A stretch of DNA of 63,214 bases, from the NCBI GenBank assembly GCA_003222635.1, contig QHWQ01000021.1, positions 1,737 to 64,950 of the forward strand, read 5' to 3'. Shown piece after piece: positions 3,643-47,598 of this stretch. A program made the position numbers and the translations under genes. Below the pieces are notes generated by a model. The model was given only the letters and a program-made list of their open reading frames with translations. It had not been told where the DNA came from and made no database searches. The DNA is from Acidobacteriota bacterium. Lineage in GTDB: Bacteria > Acidobacteriota > Vicinamibacteria > Vicinamibacterales > UBA2999. Each line of letters starts with the position of its first letter. Positions within the stretch are counted from its first letter, which is position 1.

Positions 3643-4673
3643 ATGCGCATCATGATCTCGTGCGGCGAGCCGTCCGGTGATCTGTACGCCGGAGCGCTGG
3701 CCGCCGAGATCCTTCGCCGCGATTCGTCCGCCGACATCTTCGGCTTCGGCGGTCAGCGTCTCGCATCGGCGGGTGCCCGGCTCATTGGCGACTTCCAGGG
3801 CATCTCGGTCACAGGGCTGACGGAAGCGATCCGCGTGCTGCCCCGATCGTTCGCGATGCTGCGGCGCCTGACCGGCGTCGCACGCGAGCGAAGGCCGGAC
3901 GTCTTCGTCGCGATCGACTTTCCCGACTTCAACTTCCGCCTGATGGCAGCGCTCCATCGCCTCGGCATTCCGGTGGTCTACTACATCAGCCCGCAGCTCT
4001 GGGCGTGGCGCGCCGGCCGCATGCAGACGATGAAGCGGTTCGTCAGCAGGGTGCTGGTGATCTTTCCGTTCGAAGAGGAGCTGTATCGAAGGGAAGGCGT
4101 GCCCGTGGAATGGCGGCGTCGCTGCCGCTGATACGCGCGCGCGTGCCTGATGTCCAGTTCGTCGTCGCCGCCGCGCCGAATCTGGCGGACGAACTATTCG
4201 AGCCGTTGGTCCGCCTCGAGGCGGACACTACCGAATCGATGCGAACCGAAACGGTAGCGTCCGGCTTCAGCCGGACCATCGTGTTGCGCGAACAGACGGA
4301 CGACGTGCTGGCGGCGTCAGATGTCGTGATCACCGCATCCGGCACCGCGACCGTGCAGGCGGCTCTGCACGAGCGCCCGATGGTCGTCGTCTACAAGCTC
4401 TCGCCGCTGACCTATCGCCTTGGAAAGCCGTTTGTACGGGTGGATACCTACGCGATGGCGAACCTCGTGGCCGGCAAGCGCGTTGTGCCCGAGTTGATCC
4501 AGGAAGGGTTCACTGCAGAACGGGTTGCGGAGGAGGCGATTCGTTTCCTGACGGATGGAGAGCTCTACACGCGCACGCGCGACGAGCTCCGCCTCGTGCG
4601 GGAGAAGCTCGGCGAGCCCGGCGCCAGCGGTCGCGCTGCTGACGCCGTGCTTGCCGCAGCATCTCGCCGTTAA
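3643..4673 (+). CDS. lpxB: Lipid-A-disaccharide synthase; split by an internal deletion/frameshift near 4110
   Basis: N-half GEPSGD, IDFPDFN, YYISPQLWAWR (3643-4131); C-half ASGTATVQAAL..PMVVVY, VVPELIQ (4005-4673 frame); the VGHP...LLPGSR block is absent. Confidence 0.9.
4209..4276. repeat. REP doublet (two GTAG-headed 23-nt palindromes, inverted) in frame within lpxB
   Basis: 4209-4231 (-) GTAGT-GTCCGCCTCGAGGCGGAC and 4254-4276 (+) GTAGC-GTCCGGCTTCAGCCGGAC, 22-nt spacer; translates VRLEADTT...VASGFSRT. Confidence 0.85.
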
Positions 4674-14366: not shown

Positions 14367-14464
14367 GTCCGGCTAAAGCCGGACCCTACCGACGATCCCC
14401 AGCCGGATGCAGACCGCGGCGTGGATCCGGAATGGAACACCGGTAGCGTCCGCCTTCAGCGGAC
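14367..14464. repeat. Intergenic REP doublet (REPIN-like)
   Basis: 14367-14389 (-) GTAGG-GTCCGGCTTTAGCCGGAC and 14443-14464 (+) GTAGC-GTCCGCCTTCAGCGGAC; same inverted arrangement as in lpxB, 53-nt spacer. Confidence 0.85.
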
Positions 14465-14478
14465 CTGAGGGGATACGT

Positions 14479-26020: not shown

Positions 26021-26939
26021 GTGACGCTCCGCGAGCTTGGATGGAGCGATCGGTTTGCCGCCGCGTACCAACCGTGGGAATCGAAGATCGACATCCAGCC
26101 CGGACGCGTCGCGATCGAGTTCAACCAGATTTTTCGCATCTACGTCGACGGCGGGGAGATCGACGCCGTCACCGCCGGACGCCTGAAGCATCGTGCGCGC
26201 GGGCGCGTCGAGCTGCCGGCCGTCGGCGACTGGGTCGCGCTTCGCAAACGTCCCGAAGAAGATCGCGGCGTCATCGTGGAAGTCCTGCCGCGCCGCAGCG
26301 CCTTCACGCGCCGCGCGGCCGGCGAACCGACCGGCGAGCAGGTGGTCGCCGCCAACGTGGACGTGGTGTTCGTCGTGATGGGGCTCGATCGTGACTACAA
26401 CCATCGCCGGCTCGAGCGCTACCTGCTGATGGCGCGCGAGAGCGGCGCGTCGCCGGCCATCATCCTCACCAAGCCGGACCTCTCGTCCGATCTGTCCTCG
26501 CAGCTCAACGACGTGACGACGCTGGCGGGAGATGTCATCGTACACGTGGTCAATCCGAAAGCGGGAGAAGGGCTCGATCACGTGCGGCGGCATCTCGCGC
26601 CGGGGCGTACGGCGGCGCTGCTCGGATCGTCCGGGGTAGGGAAGAGCACGATCATCAACCGGTTGGTTGGCGAAGACGTCCGCCGCACGCAGGAAGTGCG
26701 CGCGGCCGACTCGCGCGGCCGCCACACGACCTCGCATCGTGAGCTCGTCGTGCTGCCGGACGGTGGGCTGATCATCGACACGCCGGGGATGCCGCGACGA
26801 GCCGCGATGCGCCGTCAAGGCCGCCGTCGCCGAAGGAACGGTTTCAGCCGATCGGCTCGACAGCTACCTCAAGGTGCAGGACGAGCTCGCGGAGCTGGCG
26901 CGCCAGCAGGAGGAGCGGGCGCGGAAGATGAAGCGCTAG
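26021..26939 (+). CDS. rsgA: Ribosome small subunit-dependent GTPase A; deletion/frameshift near 26792
   Basis: AVGDWV, AANVD, GSSGVGKST, GRHTT, DTPG; C-terminus EPRCAVKAAV...RLDSYLK...MKR* lies in another frame ending 26939; start of the zinc finger missing. Confidence 0.92.
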
Positions 26940-28038
26940 GCGGCGGAGGGGCGGGTGGAAGCAGCAGATCCGCTTGCGGAATAGGCTTCGGCCCCGACGG
27001 ATACCTCGATTGATAGACCGGTGCGTCCGGCAGCCGCGGCATATCCGCGCTCACGAACTGATCGACCGGCATCACCCAGAGTCCGCCGAGCAGCACCACC
27101 ACCAGCAGCGCCACCGCCATCAACACAAGACGCCGCCGGCTTGGCGCCGCGGCTGTCCCCGTTGAGGCTTTTGCGGCTTTCCGCTTCGGGCGGCCGGTCG
27201 CCGGAAGACGCAATCCCAGACTCGCTGCCCCCTCCTCGACGATCGCCGGCGTCAGCCGGTTCACACGCATCTGCGCCGCCTGCATCAGCGAGCGATCGCA
27301 GAGCAGGTTGATGATGCGCGGCACGCCGCCCGTGAAGGCGTGCACGAGATCGAGCGCGGCGGGTTCGAAGGTGACCGCCGTCGATCCGCGCGCGACCCAC
27401 AGCCGATGCGCGATGTAGGCCTCGACCTCCTCGCGGTTGAGCGGCTTGAGCGTGGCGCGAATCGAGATGCGCTGATCGAGCTGCCGCATCTCCACCGCCG
27501 CGAGCATGTCGAGCAGGTTCAGCTGGCCGACGAGCACGATTTGCAGCAGCTTCGATTCGTTCGTCTCCAGGTTGGAGACGATGCGGATCTGCTCGAGCAC
27601 CTGCGGCGAGAGGTGCTGCGCCTCGTCGATGATCAGCACCGCGCTGCCGTGAATCGGCATCAGCGAGAGCAGGAACTCGTGCAGCGTGCTGATGAGCGCG
27701 TGCTTGCTCGCGGTGGCGATGCGTCCGCTGCGCACGCCCTCGCGCGAGACGACGCCGAAGTCGAGCAGCACTTCGCGCAGCAGCTCTTCGACCGACAGAA
27801 ACGGATTCAGAATCAGCGACGTGAAGACGCTCGCGTCGAGCTGCTCGAGAAGCGCCCGGCAGCTCGTCGTCTTGCCGGTGCCGATGTCGCCCGTGAGGAC
27901 GATGAAACCTTCCTTGCGGCGGATGGCCTGCTGCAGGAGGGTGATCGCTTCGTCGTGCGATTCGCTGCGGTAGAGGAACCGCGGATCAGGTGTCAGCGTG
28001 AACGGCGGTTGTACGAAGCCGAAATACTGCTCGTACAT
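26869..28038 (-). CDS. ExeA/GspA-family AAA ATPase with C-terminal TM anchor and Pro-rich tail
   Basis: MYEQYFGF..PF.LTPDPRF, Walker A GDIGTGKT, Walker B LIIDEAQ, GVPRIINLLCD. Confidence 0.88.
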   Translation of the reverse strand: MYEQYFGFVQPPFTLTPDPRFLYRSESHDEAITLLQQAIRRKEGFIVLTGDIGTGKTTSCRALLEQLDASVFTSLILNPFLSVEELLREVLLDFGVVSREGVRSGRIATASKHALISTLHEFLLSLMPIHGSAVLIIDEAQHLSPQVLEQIRIVSNLETNESKLLQIVLVGQLNLLDMLAAVEMRQLDQRISIRATLKPLNREEVEAYIAHRLWVARGSTAVTFEPAALDLVHAFTGGVPRIINLLCDRSLMQAAQMRVNRLTPAIVEEGAASLGLRLPATGRPKRKAAKASTGTAAAPSRRRLVLMAVALLVVVLLGGLWVMPVDQFVSADMPRLPDAPVYQSRYPSGPKPIPQADLLLPPAPPPPSASSSAPAPPAGAPAPRARPAP

Positions 28039-28116
28039 CGACGCGTCGCGGGTCTGCGCGGTGGCCTGGGAACTCACGCCCACGCCAATATAACAGGGAA
28101 TGCCTATAATCCCGGC

Positions 28117-29153
28117 ATGATCGCGCTGCTGATTCTGCTGTCGCTGCTCGCGCTTCCGCATCCGGCCATGGCGCAGGCCCGCGCACAGGCGCCGCCATCC
28201 CGTCCGCCGGCGACGCGCCCGCAGCCCGCGCGGCCGCCTGCGCCCGCGGATACCTATTTCGTCAGCACGCTGTCCGCGGCGGAAATCCAGAACAAGCAGG
28301 CCGTGATCGAGACGCCGATGGGCACCATCGTGCTCGACTTGCTCGCCGATGCCGCGCCGAATCATGTCGCGCACTTCATCACGCGCGCCCGCGAGGGTGC
28401 GTATGACGGCACGATCTTTCATCGCGTGATCCCGAACGGGATCATCCAGGGAGGCGATCCGCTCTCCACAGATCCCGCGCAAAGTGCACGCTACGGCACA
28501 GGTGGCATGCGGGAGCTGCGCTTCGAACGGAACAGCGAGCAGATGTCGCGCGGCGCGGTGGCGGCCACGCTCGCGCCGGGGATGCCCGACAGCGGCGGCT
28601 CGCAGTTCTTCATCTGCATCTTCGACCAGCTGCCGCTCACAGGTCAGTACACCGTGTTCGCCCGCGTGGCCGAAGGGCTGAACGTCGCGCAGAAGATCTC
28701 GCAGGTGGAGGCCGACAACACCGTGCCGAAGCAGCGCGTCGCCATGACGAAGGTGACCATTCGCGACAAGCCAGCGGCTGGTCCCGAGCCGTTCGCGACG
28801 GAAACGGCGGAGGAGCTGTCGAAGTATCGCGCGGTGCTCGAGACGTCGATCGGGAACATCACCTTCCAGTTCTTCCCGGACAAGGCGCCGAATCACGTGC
28901 GGAACTTCCTGCGCCTCGTCGATGATCAGCACCGCGCTGCCGTGAATCGGCATCAGCGAGAGCAGGAACTCGTGCAGCGTGCTGATGCATCGTCCTCGCG
29001 CGTACGCCGGTGCTCGACGGGAAATACACGGCTTTCGGCAAGGTGGTGGAGGGCATGGAGGTCGTCGAAAAGATCGAAGCCGTTACCGTCAACGGCGAGA
29101 CCCCCGTCAAGCGCGTCGAGTTGAAGAAAGTAGCCGTAACGAAGATCCCGTGA
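28117..29153 (+). CDS. Secreted double-cyclophilin peptidyl-prolyl isomerase; second domain interrupted at 28909-28987
   Basis: Signal peptide; APNHV..F, YDGTIFHRV, QGGDP, GSQFFI; second APNHVRNF, then LDGKYTAFGKVVEGMEVV in a shifted frame ending TGA 29153. Confidence 0.88.
28909..28987 (+). repeat. Exact 79-bp direct copy of 27616-27694
   Basis: CTGCGCCTCGTCGATGATCAGC...CAGCGTGCTGATG identical at both loci. Confidence 0.92.
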
Positions 29154-29438
29154 ATTGCGGACGTCCAGCCCCGGAGTAAGGGTAATGCTCGGTTTCGTTC
29201 GGTACTGCTTGCTGGAACGTCCCTCGACGAGCAGGTGGACGTGATCGGGCATGAAGCAGTACGCCAGAACCGCAAACGAACAGTCGCGTGCGGCGCGCGA
29301 AATCTGCTCCAGCACAAGGGCGACGGCGTCGGCGGTGATGAAGACCGGCGAACGCTCAAACGTGCAGAACGTCAAGAAATATGCGTGGAAGCCGATGTAA
29401 TCGAAGACGCGAAGATGCTGCGGCTGCCGCGGTCGCAC
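29154..29438 (-). mobile_element. REP-associated tyrosine transposase (RAYT, HUH/Y1 family), internally deleted
   Basis: FDY.G..AYFLTFCT, AYCFMPDHVHLL (HUH); C-terminal YPYSG present in another frame; catalytic-Tyr segment missing; REP immediately upstream. 3' end approximate. Confidence 0.85.
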
Positions 29439-29450
29439 GCCAGGGACGGC

Positions 29451-29465
29451 GCAATTCGCGTTCCA
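29451..29465 (-). promoter_or_regulatory. Putative sigma-54 promoter of the RAYT gene
   Basis: TGGAAC-GCGAA-TTGC; predicted +1 (~29439) coincides with GTG 29438. Confidence 0.45.
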
Positions 29466-29466
29466 C

Positions 29467-29489
29467 GTGGCGTCCGGCTTTAGCCGGAC
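29467..29489 (+). repeat. REP copy flanking the RAYT
   Basis: GTGGC-GTCCGGCTTTAGCCGGAC. Confidence 0.88.
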
Positions 29490-29532
29490 GTCCGCCATCA
29501 TCTCGATCTACTATTCGGCCCGGAGGGCGGAT

Positions 29533-30042
29533 ATGAGAGGCATTCTGATCGGCGCGCTCGGCGCGACCGTCGTTGTCGTCGCGCTCATGGCGCAGGGCGG
29601 GAGCAACGCGAATCCGAAACCGACCTGCAACATGTGCCCGGGGACCTACATTCCACTGTCGGAGCTCGACGCCTATCGGCAGAAGGCGATCAAGGAGAAC
29701 CTGGTCGATCAGCAGGTGCGCGACATCGACGGGACGGCGACGCTCAAGCTGGGGCCCGCCATCACCAACATGGTGCGGCGGCCCGCCACGCAGGAAACCG
29801 TGCGCCTGTTCAACGGGCCGGGCAACAACGGCTCCGAGATCACCAACGGCAAGAGCTACAACCTCAAGCCGGGCGATGTCATCGTCATCCCGGCCGGCAC
29901 AGGGCATCAGTTCACAAAAATCGACGACCACATTGACTATCTGATGGTGCGCATCGATCCTGACAAGGTGACGCCACTCAGGGATGAAGCCGCATCCCAG
30001 CAGTATCTGAAGACCGGCAAACAGCCGGGGGCGTCCAACTAG
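29533..30042 (+). CDS. Secreted cupin-fold protein (probable in-frame deletion near 29730)
   Basis: GGAGG RBS, signal peptide, CNMC, LKPGDVIVIPAGTGHQF motif 2; the His/Glu-bearing motif 1 is absent. Confidence 0.75.
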   Translation: MRGILIGALGATVVVVALMAQGGSNANPKPTCNMCPGTYIPLSELDAYRQKAIKENLVDQQVRDIDGTATLKLGPAITNMVRRPATQETVRLFNGPGNNGSEITNGKSYNLKPGDVIVIPAGTGHQFTKIDDHIDYLMVRIDPDKVTPLRDEAASQQYLKTGKQPGASN

Positions 30043-30050
30043 CACGCATC

Positions 30051-32774
30051 ATGAAGCTTTCTGTTCGCATCCGTCTGTCACTGCTGCTGGCCGCGCTGGC
30101 GGCGGCGGTCGCGTCCGCCGCCGCCCAGCAGTACGCCATCCCGCCGAATGTCGCCGCCGCGAAGCTCGAGGACGTCGTCCCCGTCGATCCGCAGATCACG
30201 GTCGGCCGGCTGCCGAACGGCCTGCGCTACTACATCCGCGCCAACCAGATCCCGCAGGCGCGCGCGGAGCTGCGGCTGGTCGTCAACGCGGGCTCGGTGC
30301 TCGAGGAAGAGGACCAGCGCGGTCTCGCGCACTTCGTCGAGCACATGTCGTTCAACGGCACGCTCCACTTCCCGGGGCTCGACGTCGTCAACTTCATGCA
30401 GTCGCTCGGCATGCGCTTCGGCGCGCACGTCAACGCGAACACGAGCTTCGACGAGACGGTCTACGAGCTGCAGATCCCGACTGAGAATCCGGCGGTCATC
30501 GATCGCGCGCTCCTGGCGCTCGAGGACTGGGCGCACAACGTCACGTTCGACCCGACGGAGATCGAGAAGGAGCGCGGCGTCATCCTCGAGGAATGGCGTC
30601 AGGGGCTCGGCGCCGAGGAGCGGATCTCCAACAAGCAGTTCCCGCTGCTGCTGAAAGGGTCGCGCTATGCGGACCGGCTGCCGATCGGCACGCCGGACAT
30701 CATTCGCAATGCGAATCCCGATCGGCTGCGCGAGTTCTACAAGGATTGGTATCGCCCGGATCTGATGGGTGTGGTCGTCGTCGGCGACGTCAACAAGGCG
30801 ATGGTCGAGAACCTGATCAGATCCCACTTCGCCGCGATTCCGACGGCGCTCGATCCGAAGCCGCGCCCGGTCTTCACCGTCCCCGATCGGCCGGGCACGG
30901 GCACCGTCTACACGACGATCACGGATCCGGAGGCGACGAGCACGCGCATCGACATTTCCGTGCGGATGCCTGCGCGCCGCTTCGTCACCATCGGCGACTA
31001 CCGCCGCTCGATCGTCGAGCGGCTGTTCGGCGCGCTGCTCTCCGCGCGCCTCGGTGAAATCTCGAGTCAGCCGAACGCGCCGTTCCTGCGCGCGCAGACG
31101 GATCGCGGGTTGCTGGTCCGCACGGCCGAAGTGACGACGCTCGTCGCGCTGGTGCCGCCCAACGGCGTGGAGCGCGGGCTGACGTCGCTCTTCACCGAGG
31201 TCACTCGCGTCGCGCGCTTCGGCTTCACGCAGACCGAGGTCACTCGCGAGAAGCTGAACACGCAGCTGTATCTGGAACGCGCGATGGCCGAACGCGAGAA
31301 GAGCGACTCGGGCCCGCTCGCGGACGAATACGTCCGCAACTTCATTCACAACGAGCCGATTCCCGGCATCGTCTACGAGTACGGCCTGAGCCAGCGGTTC
31401 ACGCCCGAGATCACGCTCGCGGAGGTCAACGCGCTCGCCAGGGACTGGGTGCCGGATCACGATCGTCTCGTCCTCGTCGCGGCGCCCGAAAAAGATCGCG
31501 CGCTGCTGCCGACCGAGGCGCGCATGGCCGCGGTCATCAAGGCGGTCACCGATGCACCGCTCACCGCCTATGTCGACACCGTCAGCAACATGCCGCTCAT
31601 GGCGATGAAGCCGGCGCCGGGAACGGTCGCGAAGGAAACGAAGAACGACGCGATCGGCGTCACGGAGTGGACGCTCGCGAACGGCGTGCGTGTGGTGCTG
31701 AAGCCGACCACCAACAAGCAGGACGAAGTCATTTTCCGCGCCGTGAGCCCCGGCGGCACGTCGCTGGTAAGCGACGCGGACTTCCTTCCCGCTGCCACCG
31801 CCGCGGATGTGATCGAGCAGGGCGGCCTCGGCACCTTCAACAGCACCAATCTCGCGAAGGTGCTCGCGGATCCGGTCGCGTTCGGCGTGCTGAAGGATCA
31901 GCTGAAGGTCGCGCTCGCCAATCAGCGATCGATGCCCGAGACGCTGTTCGACGAGACCCTCAGCGCCGCGCTCACGCAGAACCATCCACGGGCGCAGCCG
32001 CTGACGCCCGAGCGGCTCGACCAGATGAATCTCGAGAAGTCGCTTGCCTTCTACAAGGACCGCTTCGCCGACGCGAGCAACTTCACGTTCGTCTTCGTCG
32101 GCAGCTTCGACCTGCCGACGATGAAGCCGCTCGTGGAGCGGTATCTGGGCAGCCTGCCGTCACTGCGCCGCATGGAGACGGTGAAGGACGTCGGCATGCA
32201 TCCGCCGGCGGAGGTCGTCAACAGGGAGGTGCGCGCCGGCATCGAGCCGCGCAGCCAGGTGTCGATCGTCTTCAGCGGGCCGTTCCAGAACGACGAGCAG
32301 CATCGCGTCATCGCCAACGCCATGGCCGACACGCTGGGCGGCAACCTGCAGCGCACGCTGCGCGAGGACCTCGGCGGGACGTACGGCGTCAGCGTCGAAC
32401 CGAATTACCAGAAGCGCCCGACGCAGGAGTACCGCATCGCCATCAACTTCGGGTGCGATCCGCAGCGCGTGAACGACCTGGTCGCCGCCGCGTTCCGTGT
32501 GATCGACACGTTCAAGGCGGTGGGCCCGAGCCAGAGCCAGGTGGCCGACGCGCGCCAGGGGCTGACGCGCGACCTCGAGGTCAACAGCCGCGACAACCAG
32601 TACCTGCTGAACCGGCTGCTGTTCAAGTACGAGTACGGCGAGAACGTCGCGGACGTCTTCAACATGCAGCCGTTCTACGAGCAGGTGACCACCGCCGCCA
32701 TCCGCGACGCCGCGCGGATGTACCTGAACACCAACCGCTACGTGAAGGTCACGCTGATGCCGGTGACGAACTGA
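30051..32774 (+). CDS. PqqL-like single-chain M16 zinc peptidase (~40 aa missing near 31868)
   Basis: HFVEH, NANTSFDETVY, LREDLGGTY; lacks the block ending DLET..QL.Y that is present in the paralog at 40305. Confidence 0.92.
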   Translation: MKLSVRIRLSLLLAALAAAVASAAAQQYAIPPNVAAAKLEDVVPVDPQITVGRLPNGLRYYIRANQIPQARAELRLVVNAGSVLEEEDQRGLAHFVEHMSFNGTLHFPGLDVVNFMQSLGMRFGAHVNANTSFDETVYELQIPTENPAVIDRALLALEDWAHNVTFDPTEIEKERGVILEEWRQGLGAEERISNKQFPLLLKGSRYADRLPIGTPDIIRNANPDRLREFYKDWYRPDLMGVVVVGDVNKAMVENLIRSHFAAIPTALDPKPRPVFTVPDRPGTGTVYTTITDPEATSTRIDISVRMPARRFVTIGDYRRSIVERLFGALLSARLGEISSQPNAPFLRAQTDRGLLVRTAEVTTLVALVPPNGVERGLTSLFTEVTRVARFGFTQTEVTREKLNTQLYLERAMAEREKSDSGPLADEYVRNFIHNEPIPGIVYEYGLSQRFTPEITLAEVNALARDWVPDHDRLVLVAAPEKDRALLPTEARMAAVIKAVTDAPLTAYVDTVSNMPLMAMKPAPGTVAKETKNDAIGVTEWTLANGVRVVLKPTTNKQDEVIFRAVSPGGTSLVSDADFLPAATAADVIEQGGLGTFNSTNLAKVLADPVAFGVLKDQLKVALANQRSMPETLFDETLSAALTQNHPRAQPLTPERLDQMNLEKSLAFYKDRFADASNFTFVFVGSFDLPTMKPLVERYLGSLPSLRRMETVKDVGMHPPAEVVNREVRAGIEPRSQVSIVFSGPFQNDEQHRVIANAMADTLGGNLQRTLREDLGGTYGVSVEPNYQKRPTQEYRIAINFGCDPQRVNDLVAAAFRVIDTFKAVGPSQSQVADARQGLTRDLEVNSRDNQYLLNRLLFKYEYGENVADVFNMQPFYEQVTTAAIRDAARMYLNTNRYVKVTLMPVTN

Positions 32775-45912: not shown

Positions 45913-47598
45913 TTGTCCTTTCCCGATCTCCGCTCCTTCATTGATCGCCTCCAGCGTGACAACGACATCGTCACGGTGGAGGCGCCGGTCGATCGGAATC
46001 TCGAAGTCGCTGAAATCCATCGCCGCGTGATCGCCGCCGGCGGTCCCGCGCTGATGTTCACCAATGTCCGGCTAAAGCCGGACGCTACCGCGACTTCTCC
46101 TTTTCGTCTCGTCACGAACTTGTTCGGCACGGCGCGGCGAGCGGAGCTGGCGTTCGGCGAGCGGCCTCTGCGACTGATACGCCGCGTCGTGGAGCTGGCG
46201 GAAACGCTGCTGCCGCCGACGCCGGGCAAGCTGTGGAGCGCGCGCGACGTCGGCAAGGAGCTGCTGAGGGTCGGCACGCGCAACGTGCAGACGGGTCCTG
46301 TCGTCGAGAACGTCACGTTCGATGTGGATCTGAGTCGTCTGCCCGTCATCACCTGCTGGCCGGAGGATGGCGGGCCGTTCATCACGCTGCCGCTCGTCTA
46401 CACGCAGCATCCCGATCGACCATGCCACAACCTTGGCATGTACCGGATGCACGTCTACGACAGCCGCACGACCGGCATGCACTGGCAGATTGGCAAGGGC
46501 GGCGGCTTTCACTACGCCGCGGCCGAAGCGCGCGGCGCGACGCTGCCAGTCACGGTGTTTCTCGGAGGACCTCCGGCGCTGATCCTCTCGGCGATCGCGC
46601 CGCTGCCCGAGAACGTGCCGGAGCTGATGCTCGCCTCGCTCATCGCGGGCGAGCGACTGCCGCAGGTGCAGGGTTACGGACCGCATCCGTTGATGGCGAA
46701 CGCGGAGTTCGCGCTGATGGGCGAGGTGCCGCCGCGGGTGCGAAAGCCGGAGGGGCCCTTCGGCGATCACTACGGCTACTACTCGCTGCAGCACGATTAC
46801 CCGGTATTCGAGGTGCGCCGGGTTGCGCATCGAAACGACGCAATCTATCCGGCGACCGTCGTCGGCAAGCCCCGGCAGGAAGACTTCTACATCGGCGATC
46901 TGCTGCAGGAGCTGCTGTCGCCGCTGTTTCCGCTGGTGATGCCGGCCGTCGAGCGTCTCTGGTCGTACGGCGAGACCGGTTATCACTCGCTGGCGGCGGC
47001 GGTCGTCAAGCAGCGCTACGGCCGCGAGGCGATGGCGAGCGCGTTCCGCATCCTCGGCGAAGGGCAGCTCTCGCTGACGAAGTTCCTGCTGCTGACCGAT
47101 CGCCGCGTCGATCTGCGCAACTTCAAGGCGACGCTCGAGCATCTGCTCGCGCGGACGCATCCGGAAACCGATCTCTACGTGTTCTCGAATCTGTCGATGG
47201 ACACGCTCGACTACACGGGTCCGGCCGTGAATCAGGGATCCAAAGGCGTGTGGCTGGGGCTCGGCGATGCCGTGCGCGAGCTGCCGCGTGCATTCACGGC
47301 CGCCGAGCTGCGTGGTGTCACGGATGTGCGTGTCTTCTGCGCCGGCTGTCTCGTCGTCGGCGTCCCCTCGCGCGCGTCGGATCCTGACGCGCCCGCGCGC
47401 ATTGCCGGCGACGCCGCGTTCCGCGAGTGGCCGTTGATCGTGCTGACCGAAGAACCGATGCGCGCCGCCGCGAGCTCGATGAACTTCCTGTGGACGACCT
47501 TCACGGCGACCGCGCGCACCGTGACCCAGCGATGGAAGGAGTATTTCCCGGACCGCAACGTGGAGATGGGCGATTCGATCAAGGCCAGCCTCGATTGA
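45913..47598 (+). CDS. UbiD family prFMN-dependent decarboxylase (C-terminal block missing near 47505)
   Basis: WPEDGGPFITLP, NLGMYRM, EGPFGDHYGYY, GKPRQED, DTLDY. Confidence 0.9.
   Translation: MSFPDLRSFIDRLQRDNDIVTVEAPVDRNLEVAEIHRRVIAAGGPALMFTNVRLKPDATATSPFRLVTNLFGTARRAELAFGERPLRLIRRVVELAETLLPPTPGKLWSARDVGKELLRVGTRNVQTGPVVENVTFDVDLSRLPVITCWPEDGGPFITLPLVYTQHPDRPCHNLGMYRMHVYDSRTTGMHWQIGKGGGFHYAAAEARGATLPVTVFLGGPPALILSAIAPLPENVPELMLASLIAGERLPQVQGYGPHPLMANAEFALMGEVPPRVRKPEGPFGDHYGYYSLQHDYPVFEVRRVAHRNDAIYPATVVGKPRQEDFYIGDLLQELLSPLFPLVMPAVERLWSYGETGYHSLAAAVVKQRYGREAMASAFRILGEGQLSLTKFLLLTDRRVDLRNFKATLEHLLARTHPETDLYVFSNLSMDTLDYTGPAVNQGSKGVWLGLGDAVRELPRAFTAAELRGVTDVRVFCAGCLVVGVPSRASDPDAPARIAGDAAFREWPLIVLTEEPMRAAASSMNFLWTTFTATARTVTQRWKEYFPDRNVEMGDSIKASLD
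46066..46088 (-). repeat. Single REP copy in frame within the ubiD-family gene
   Basis: GTAGC-GTCCGGCTTTAGCCGGAC on the minus strand; encodes VRLKPDAT between LMFTN and SPFRLVTNLFG. Confidence 0.88.

Follow-up and report, generated by a model that had tools for sequence, protein, structure and literature searches.

A decayed RAYT gene beside a GTAG-type REP family

The stretch analyzed here, referred to as the window, comprises 63,214 nt of an Acidobacteriota genome of the order Vicinamibacterales (contig QHWQ01000021.1, positions 1,737–64,950 of the forward strand). It contains the remnant of a gene for a tyrosine transposase associated with repetitive extragenic palindromes (REPs; the enzyme is abbreviated RAYT, also TnpA_REP), an HUH/Y1 enzyme, adjacent to a hairpin of a GTAG-type REP family. 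Together, the decayed transposase gene and the REP family very probably represent a REPtron of the 'group 3' type. The draft genome (G000) is metagenome-assembled and fragmented, consisting of 5,627,419 bases in 428 contigs with 65.4% G+C content, 88% completeness and 2.4% contamination.

The RAYT remnant consists of 82 codons at 29193..29438 (−), running from a GTG start to ...EGRSSKQYRTK. Its limits were set by alignment with relatives: homology begins at the GTG at 29438, taken as the true start, and ends with codon K103 at 29193. The remnant lies within the open reading frame (ORF) 28953..29501 (−), which carries the HUH motif PDHVHLL, present also in every aligned relative. The Pfam Y1_Tnp model matched this ORF at 28.2 bits (cut-off 23), which bears out the original prediction of an HUH transposase fragment at 29154..29495. 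The NCBIfam model REP_Tyr_transpos scored 45.1 bits (cut-off 80), matching over profile positions 10–70 of 146 only, and the IS200 model scored 19.1 bits (cut-off 55). Compared to full-length relatives, about 20 codons after EGRS are absent through an internal deletion. The WQ motif and everything 3' of it are also gone, including the catalytic tyrosine (Y-x-x-x-NP), at whose position the intact relatives have ARYILENPV. Since the copy ends before the WQ and Y motifs, the window gene is a pseudogene of the RAYT family rather than a working member and cannot act. Protein P0003, from another sample, was identical over the shared part and had the same internal deletion, with the C-terminal half kept, while P0002 was 96% identical and possessed the segment missing from P0003 before diverging. 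These sequences are thus one gene at several stages of decay.

The REP adjoining the remnant, GTGG-C-GTCCGGC-TTTA-GCCGGAC at 29467..29489 (+), has a G-type stem and a GTGG foot that faces the gene. The hairpin had been predicted 29 nt upstream of the fragment; it is present, and the corrected distance is 28 nt from the start of the foot to the GTG of the RAYT gene. An isolated half-stem, GTCCGCC, could be read directly beside this REP at 29490..29496 (unstranded), corresponding to the 5' arm of a C-type REP. It is possibly the scar of a second REP copy and, because it abuts the REP, the flank of the remnant looks rearranged.

Five occurrences of the palindromic core GTCCGSCTNNAGSCGGAC were counted in the window (at 4209, 4259, 14367, 29472 and 46066), compared to none expected from 100 dinucleotide-preserving shuffles; six copies are obtained once the foot is counted. 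All five further copies named in the original prediction (4209, 4254, 14367, 14443 and 46066) are present, the one at 14443 in degenerate form. A C-type REP (GTCCGCC...GGCGGAC) at 4209..4231 (−) and a G-type REP at 4254..4276 (+) are the left and right halves of a foot-to-foot dimer inside the lpxB frame. A G-type copy at 14367..14389 (−) is intergenic, with a BNR-repeat gene on one side and an HD-domain response-regulator gene on the other, and its partner at 14443..14465 (+) is a C-type REP that has lost one base in the 3' arm. The remaining G-type copy, at 46066..46088 (−), is a 21-nt insertion that keeps the frame of a UbiD-family gene (45913..47598, +); it lies within the N-terminal domain and encodes ...RLKPDAT.... 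Folded as single-stranded DNA (ssDNA), the REP at 29467–29489 reached −12.0 kcal/mol (z −3.79), and the three single window copies ranged from −8.8 to −12.0 kcal/mol (z −2.5 to −3.8). The dimer, folded over 4204–4281, formed one long hairpin of −23.1 kcal/mol (z −3.96). An Rfam scan of the whole window at gathering thresholds gave 0 matches.

The REP family across the genome

A rare motif had been named beforehand as counter-evidence to a RAYT–REP system, but the motif is not rare. The 5.63-Mb draft contained 200 strict cores and about 250 footed copies (250 at up to three substitutions), 172 of which were exact to the degenerate consensus, compared to 4 in the reversed-genome control. The 250 include a few copies of a related GGCCGSC variant, which has nine exact copies in the genome. 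The family follows the pattern GTAG-N-GTCCG(G/C)C-TT(C/T)A-G(C/G)CGGAC, in which a stem of 7 bp encloses a loop of 4 nt and the GTAG foot is set one base 5' of the stem, and its genome-wide consensus was cGGTAG-T-GTCCG[G/C]C-TT[C/T]A-G[C/G]CGGAC-C. The foot was GTAG in 207 copies, GTGG in 17, GTCG in 12 and another tetramer in 14. At the variable stem pair, 154 copies had G:C, 93 had C:G and 3 were non-complementary. Since 247 of the 250 copies are complementary at this position although the search pattern was open to all four combinations, the two stem types are maintained by compensation. The compensatory change first noticed in the copy at 4209 (GTCCGCC/GGCGGAC) thus holds genome-wide. De novo totals of GTAG-plus-hairpin sites against those for other tetramer tags (431 vs 155–648) were uninformative, and only family sizes were used.

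The copies formed 178 clusters, distributed as 112 singles, 60 dimers and 6 trimers. The feet faced each other in 59 of the 60 dimers, with gaps of 0–87 nt (an arrangement that Di Nocera 2013 calls 'TT' dimers), and 57 of these 59 paired a G-type with a C-type partner. The two orders of the partners occurred 29 and 28 times and are one asymmetric element in its two orientations. Intergenic positions were occupied by 128 of the 250 copies, compared to 22% of random sites, and 62 of the 250 lay deep in coding-sequence calls, compared to 63.5% of random sites. These figures are rough, as the gene caller was home-made (longest ORF plus G+C at third codon positions, GC3; 76.6% of the genome coding). 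The family has the features of a GTAG-type REP, with a copy number above 100 and a mostly extragenic location.

Among same-genus genomes, the exact GTAG form was present in 20 of 24, at 1–293 copies. Of 16 genomes from the order's other families, one had it (G037, 50 copies), and this genome also has a RAYT flanked by the GTCCGSC class. The unpublished genome G009 underlies the 293-copy figure, loci L016 and L039, and one row each in the UbiD and dnaE alignments.

RAYT relatives and their bracketing hairpins

More than 600 relatives of the fragment, 100–319 residues long, could be collected from the protein collection, some of which their sources already name 'REP-associated tyrosine transposase' or 'RayT'. 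Seven full-length relatives, namely five database proteins, a gene on contig C394 of this genome and a gene of genome G022, scored 95–110 bits on the RAYT model, above the cut-off of 80. On the IS200 model, five of the seven scored 25–32 bits and the others gave no match. The best solved structure for the relatives was E. coli TnpArep (4ER8, E = 8e-6), and their motifs were DH[VL]H, WQ and YI[LV]ENP. Homologs grouping with ordinary IS200 transposases, an outcome considered in advance, were therefore not what these comparisons returned.

Two sets of loci were compared, one of 21 intact genes from same-genus and same-order genomes and one of 80 loci from species genomes. Some same-genus RAYT rows are identical to rows among the 80 loci, which puts the genus of the window in the order Vicinamibacterales; counts across such kin are not independent. 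The labels of the 80 loci began with Vicinamibacter in 33 cases and with Acidobacteri in 42, with 5 others, which is consistent with the proposal of an acidobacterial RAYT–REP system. Enrichment of the motif beside homologous transposases could also be confirmed: in 53 of the 80 loci the gene was bracketed by perfect GT[AG]G hairpins, the upstream one on the coding strand and the downstream one on the opposite strand. Under these strict criteria, 7 of the other loci had the upstream element only, 9 the downstream element only and 11 neither. Inverted GT[AG]G bracketing was likewise seen in the same-genus loci L012–L041. Among the 78 loci with an upstream flank, the foot of the nearest upstream element was distal to the gene in 54, on both sides in 4 and proximal in 3, and no such element was detected in 17. 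The window remnant has a single REP, on its 5' side only, with the foot toward the gene. A G/C swap at the same stem position was the only difference between the nearest REPs on the upstream and downstream sides in 10 of the 53 bracketed loci, and in whole RAYT sub-clades GTGG replaces the GTAG foot.

REP type on the RAYT tree

The stems differed by RAYT clade and included GTCCGSC, GGGCCGSC, CTTCCGSC, G[C/G]CGGGTCC, GCTCAAC, GCAGGGC and others. A 100-row tree was built with the longer proxy P0003 and with P0002–P0010 and 20 metagenome loci added; 30 distant sister-clade rows were omitted and 3 kept as the outgroup. On this tree, four labels (three stem classes and 'other or none') required 14 changes compared to 36.9 when shuffled, and none of 200 shuffles was as low. 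The GGCCGSC class formed one starred clade. REP type therefore clusters on the RAYT tree; because related sequences share labels by descent, this is clustering and not a set of independent co-evolution events. In five genomes with five REP types, each type having been defined from the flanks of those genomes' RAYT genes, the RAYT-flanking type was the commonest in five of five (77, 239, 46, 79 and 12 copies). In the genome with the fewest, G031, 6 of the 12 copies sit at the RAYT locus itself.

Other RAYT genes of the genome

A second RAYT gene, intact and encoding 164 aa, is located at G000:C394:18169-18549 (L001 1435..1929, +) and scored 95 bits, above the cut-off. The REP that brackets this gene is a different one, GTAG...G[C/G]CGGGTCC-NNNN-GGACCCG[G/C]C, with 42 cores in the genome, which thus holds at least two REPtrons. 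A third RAYT gene, at G000:C148:45774-46023, is frameshifted and bracketed by GTAGTGTAGGGGCGGGTCTTCAGACCCGCCCC-type hairpins, a class with 2 cores in the genome, and a C-terminal RAYT fragment was found at C17:29766-29900. The RAYT-like genes on C237, C45 and C17 had no REP of the GTCCGSC class. Just one RAYT-like gene of the assembly, the window remnant, has a GTCCGSC REP within 100 nt. Its clade is represented by this one remnant against about 250 REPs, a low gene copy number with a high REP copy number, and no second member of the clade could be found in the assembled genome by searches with the RAYT model and with P0004.

Is the remnant the cognate enzyme of the family?

On balance, the remnant is somewhat more likely than not to be the GTCCGSC family's own (cognate) enzyme, as suggested by flanks and tree position. 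Among the matches listed, the six most similar flank-bearing metagenome relatives (62–67% identical) had GTCCGSC REPs in five cases and GGGCCGSC in one, and GTCCGSC was the prevailing label around the fragment's clade on the 100-row tree. That clade is starred and has 7 rows, with P0002–P0006 and P0008; the closest intact relatives are P0004–P0006 (71–75% identical) and P0008 (67%). Across the 36 genomes of the genus, no match to P0006 exceeded 62% identity.

Several observations weigh against a REPtron with this remnant as its enzyme. The window gene lacks the catalytic tyrosine and its RAYT score is under the cut-off (45.1 < 80). The flank evidence comes from outside the fragment's starred clade, to which the closest intact relatives, P0004–P0006 and P0008, contribute none. 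A single flanking REP with its foot toward the gene has parallels in only 3 of the 61 relatives' loci with a detectable upstream element, and the half-stem beside that REP gives the flank a rearranged look. Co-occurrence of RAYT genes and REPs, proposed as a check, was imperfect: 14 same-genus genomes had 49 or more exact copies, and six of them gave an intact RAYT flanked by the GTCCGSC class. A search with P0004 (E ≤ 1e-5) gave no RAYT match in G005, G007 and G014, which have 59, 49 and 86 exact REP copies at 78%, 93% and 96% completeness; this gap is either a real loss of the enzyme or a matter of unassembled repeat-flanked genes. The same-genus genomes are fragmented metagenome-assembled genomes, in which the absence of a RAYT gene is weak evidence. 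Finally, a quick tree had put the 82-residue fragment beside GGCCGSC-flanked RAYTs (SH-aLRT 92, not starred); this placement was dropped because the careful 100-row tree put the fragment in its separate 7-row clade, outside the starred GGCCGSC clade. The original prediction of a RAYT with a 'cognate' REP family thus stands for the RAYT and for the family, while the window copy is a dead remnant with its REP in the minority orientation, and 'cognate' can be kept only as a probable assignment.

The strongest alternative is that the remnant is a dead paralog and that an intact RAYT missed by the draft assembly spreads the GTCCGSC family. Incompleteness of the genome (88%, 428 contigs) leaves room for such a gene, and in relatives the repeat-bracketed RAYT genes are often at contig ends (for example G018:C275:128-604, G009:C96:88-537 and G021:C887:43-474). 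The 172 of 250 copies exact to the degenerate consensus also fit recent activity. The searches of the assembly with the RAYT model and P0004, however, returned no second clade member, and P0002 and P0003 represent the same gene at other stages of decay in other samples. A missed enzyme is accordingly a serious but minority possibility, and the remnant itself is preferred as the cognate gene.

REP insertions inside genes and possible host use

The 21-nt REP in the UbiD-family gene had no counterpart in 12 of the 13 orthologs, and the closest ortholog, from G006, carried a degenerate 18-nt element at the same site. This is one clean insertion polymorphism and a sign of past mobility. The lpxB dimer (4209–4276) lies in frame in a variable loop, where it adds 66–69 nt depending on the choice of alignment; the ORF 4005..4673 reads through it, and five orthologs were without the dimer. 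As a separate observation, the lpxB gene (3643..4673, +) lacks 148 nt near 4128 compared to the five orthologs, between two short similar motifs, so that the frame is shifted. The gap reflects either a pseudogene of an essential gene or an assembly error.

Genome-wide, an ORF whose GC3 is coding-like to either side of the REPs runs across 29 of the 178 clusters, and the 28 ORFs concerned were submitted to Pfam. The REP fell inside a domain match in 10 of the 28 (two Lhr helicases, GlgE N/S, PDH_N, Dus, PALP, Fer4_7, FAD_binding_2, PrmA and Pkinase) and between two domains of one protein in 6 (RecO, E2 acyltransferase, DnaE, thiolase, a LytTR regulator and MutL). The position was ambiguous in 8, and 4 had no Pfam match. 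The 16 Pfam-supported genes with in-frame REPs or dimers (loci L150–L175) are on G000 contigs C35, C408, C98, C222, C251, C286, C297, C374, C384, C406, C101, C145, C148, C180, C302 and C394. Adding the UbiD-family and lpxB cases of the window brings the truly intragenic clusters to at least 18. In the two Lhr helicase paralogs the REP is at the same spot, directly before QRIGLSAT. The peptides VRLK(P/A)D(T/A)T, VVSGFSRT and GPPEGGHY recurred at intragenic REPs. For dnaE, a clean insertion could not be demonstrated: the REP-like element lies in a hypervariable linker whose length varies in all 11 sequences compared.

The intragenic copies bear on a further alternative, in which the hairpins persist through host use, as transcript ends, mRNA stabilisers or protein-binding sites, and the transposase is irrelevant to their present distribution. 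Such use would agree with the stem complementarity of nearly all copies, with the excess of intergenic copies noted above (128 of 250 vs 22% of random sites, by a crude gene caller) and with the description of REPs as mostly downstream of genes (Di Nocera 2013, PMC3733652). However, a transposase that reads the hairpin would equally select for complementarity. A terminator role is also implausible for the clusters inside coding frames. In addition, REP types are grouped by clade on the RAYT tree, and in five of five genomes the type agrees with the flanking RAYT. Persistence through host use alone therefore appears unlikely, and a distribution shaped by a RAYT is favored.

Truncation of the gene and quality of the contig

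The truncation of the RAYT gene was checked against soil metagenomes. Parts of 28300–30100 were present in 20 runs from 17 studies, and contigs of four runs were aligned. A contig of run X1 spans 29036–29674 with 0 differences, and a contig of run X3, from another study, spans 29081–29478 with 2 differences. Each contains the stop codon of the cyclophilin gene, the remnant and its break at 29193, and extends to the REP. As X1 is possibly the source sample, only one of the two bridging contigs is surely independent. The truncation is real and is supported by independent contigs. It is thus very improbable that the break is an artefact of the metagenome-assembled contig, a reading prompted by a probable false join only 200 nt away and by the frameshifting 148-nt gap in lpxB.

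The probable false join is a 79-nt direct duplication, in which 28909–28987 is an exact copy of 27616–27694 and stands in for about 100 codons in the middle of the cyclophilin gene. The contigs of the four runs end at 28918 and resume at 28988 or 29036, one of them continuing with unlike sequence, and no exact-match contig over 28919–28987 was listed among them. The duplication is probably a local misassembly of the contig. Short-contig coverage of the rest of the stretch was uninformative on abundance. Two side observations concern the same region. Very long opposite-strand ORFs, 26869..28953 (−) and 27340..29124 (+), overlap across the AAA_22 ATPase and cyclophilin genes; they are artefacts of high G+C content and the duplication, not real fusions. 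The protein listed as the window's own (P0001, 143 aa) has its last 14 residues, after ...FLQLDAL, unlike those of ORF 28953..29501, and the collection therefore holds a version of the stretch that differs inside the cyclophilin 3' end.

The remaining alternative, that the remnant is a fragment of an IS200/IS605 insertion sequence with a subterminal hairpin and not a RAYT, is scarcely credible: the Pfam model detects only the shared Y1_Tnp domain, but the IS200 model gave 19 bits for the fragment and 25–32 for intact relatives (cut-off 55) against 95–110 on the RAYT model, a single gene remnant faces about 250 hairpins, and the neighboring genes encode a cyclophilin and a cupin, with no tnpB.

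Proposed mechanism and significance

By analogy with work on E. coli, S. maltophilia and Marinomonas, an intact enzyme of this family would bind the folded single-stranded hairpin and read the GTAG foot together with the stem-loop. The catalytic tyrosine would then cut at a nearby CT dinucleotide, after which the strands would be rejoined or transferred. The expected outcome would be the spread of single REPs and of foot-to-foot dimers. Because the adjacent enzyme gene is dead, the approximately 250 copies would be leftovers of past activity or would depend on an unassembled copy of the enzyme.

A wider reading, which joins these observations, is offered only tentatively. The commonest REP population of the genome (about 250 copies, 172 exact) may have outlived its transposase, and REP families in Vicinamibacterales may routinely persist after their cognate gene decays, or be spread in trans by a heterologous RAYT. 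Their entry into reading frames may also be frequent enough for essential enzymes to gain new loops. The mobile unit might be the foot-to-foot dimer of a G-type and a C-type REP and not the single REP, with the stem types marking its two ends.

RAYT–REP systems have been studied almost entirely in Proteobacteria. The same design has radiated here within Vicinamibacterales, a soil lineage that is abundant and mostly uncultured, with many RAYT clades that each have their own hairpin stem, often two stem variants per enzyme, and a GTAG or GTGG foot. This provides a natural series of enzyme/hairpin pairs for asking how HUH transposases read their substrates, along with cases of a decayed enzyme gene and hundreds of surviving hairpins. 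In annotation work, such repeats break short-read assemblies, and the in-frame REP peptides (VRLKPDTT, VVSGFSRT and GPPEGGHY) should not be taken for conserved protein motifs.

Comparison with known systems

Intragenic GTAG REPs as a feature are not new, because they were described earlier, many of them in replication and repair genes (Di Nocera 2013, PMC3733652). The intragenic GTAG/CGTC REPs of that study and the Rickettsia RPEs (Ogata et al. 2000, cited there) are likewise in frame inside genes for known proteins. The in-frame copies found here are in lhr (two paralogs), recO, mutL, dnaE and others, and the host lineage is unlike those of the 2013 cases.

Two kinds of element from the same superfamily have been reported from Acidobacteria. 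TIRYTs are flanked by long terminal inverted repeats (Di Nocera 2013, PMC3733652) instead of GTAG REPs. Class 3 TnpA_Y1 enzymes are associated with high-copy flanking structures, about 600 in Solibacter usitatus, and are characterized by NHVH / W[TA] / YV..EQ motifs and a CnGA foot (Quentin 2018, PMC6006769), whereas the RAYTs of the same phylum described here have DHVH / WQ / YI.ENP and a GT[AG]G foot. GTAG REPtrons in Acidobacteria are not reported in the parts of the main texts of Di Nocera 2013 (PMC3733652) and Quentin 2018 (PMC6006769) that were covered, and their supplements could list cases. A term search of Nunvar 2010 (PMC2817692) found no mention of Acidobacteria. No paper was found that links names beginning with Vicinamibacter to repetitive extragenic palindromes, and none on REPIN/RAYT in Acidobacteriota was among the matches listed. 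The system is thus a real group-3-like REPtron in a lineage for which none was found in print, and it is apparently undescribed for this bacterial group.

E. coli TnpA_REP (group 2) belongs to the same enzyme family, with 4ER8 as the best structure and a GTAG foot. Its REPs are 29–37-nt imperfect palindromes with a conserved bulge (PMC8266576), whereas those described here are perfect and 18 nt long. E. coli dimers also combine two REP types, y with z1 or z2 (PMC8266576), comparable to the G-type and C-type pairs in 57 of 59 dimers here.

In its motifs and in the form of its REPs, the system comes closest, among described kinds, to the group 3 REPtrons of S. maltophilia (Sm) and Marinomonas (Mb), that is, subclass 2.5 of Quentin et al. 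2018, equivalent to Bertels group 3. Group 3 REPs are described as short perfect palindromes with GTAG directly or 1–2 bases before and with cleavage at CT, and their hosts have several REPtrons and hundreds of REPs per genome (Corneloup 2021, PMC8266576). The family described here similarly has a perfect palindrome, a 7-bp stem, a 4-nt loop and GTAG one base away, with at least two REPtrons in the genome. The DH[VL]H / WQ / YI..NP motifs and the length of 160–170 aa make subclass 2.5 the nearest entry of Table 1 of PMC6006769, an assignment made by comparing motifs and length with that table and not with the authors' models. The host phylum differs, as the table gives Xanthomonads and Pseudomonads for subclass 2.5, and the Y motif is YI[LV]ENP here compared to YI[VI]ANP (PMC6006769). 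Unlike in Sm, where changing GTAG to GTTG at the third base abolished cleavage (PMC8266576), whole sub-clades of the Vicinamibacterales RAYTs use a GTGG foot.

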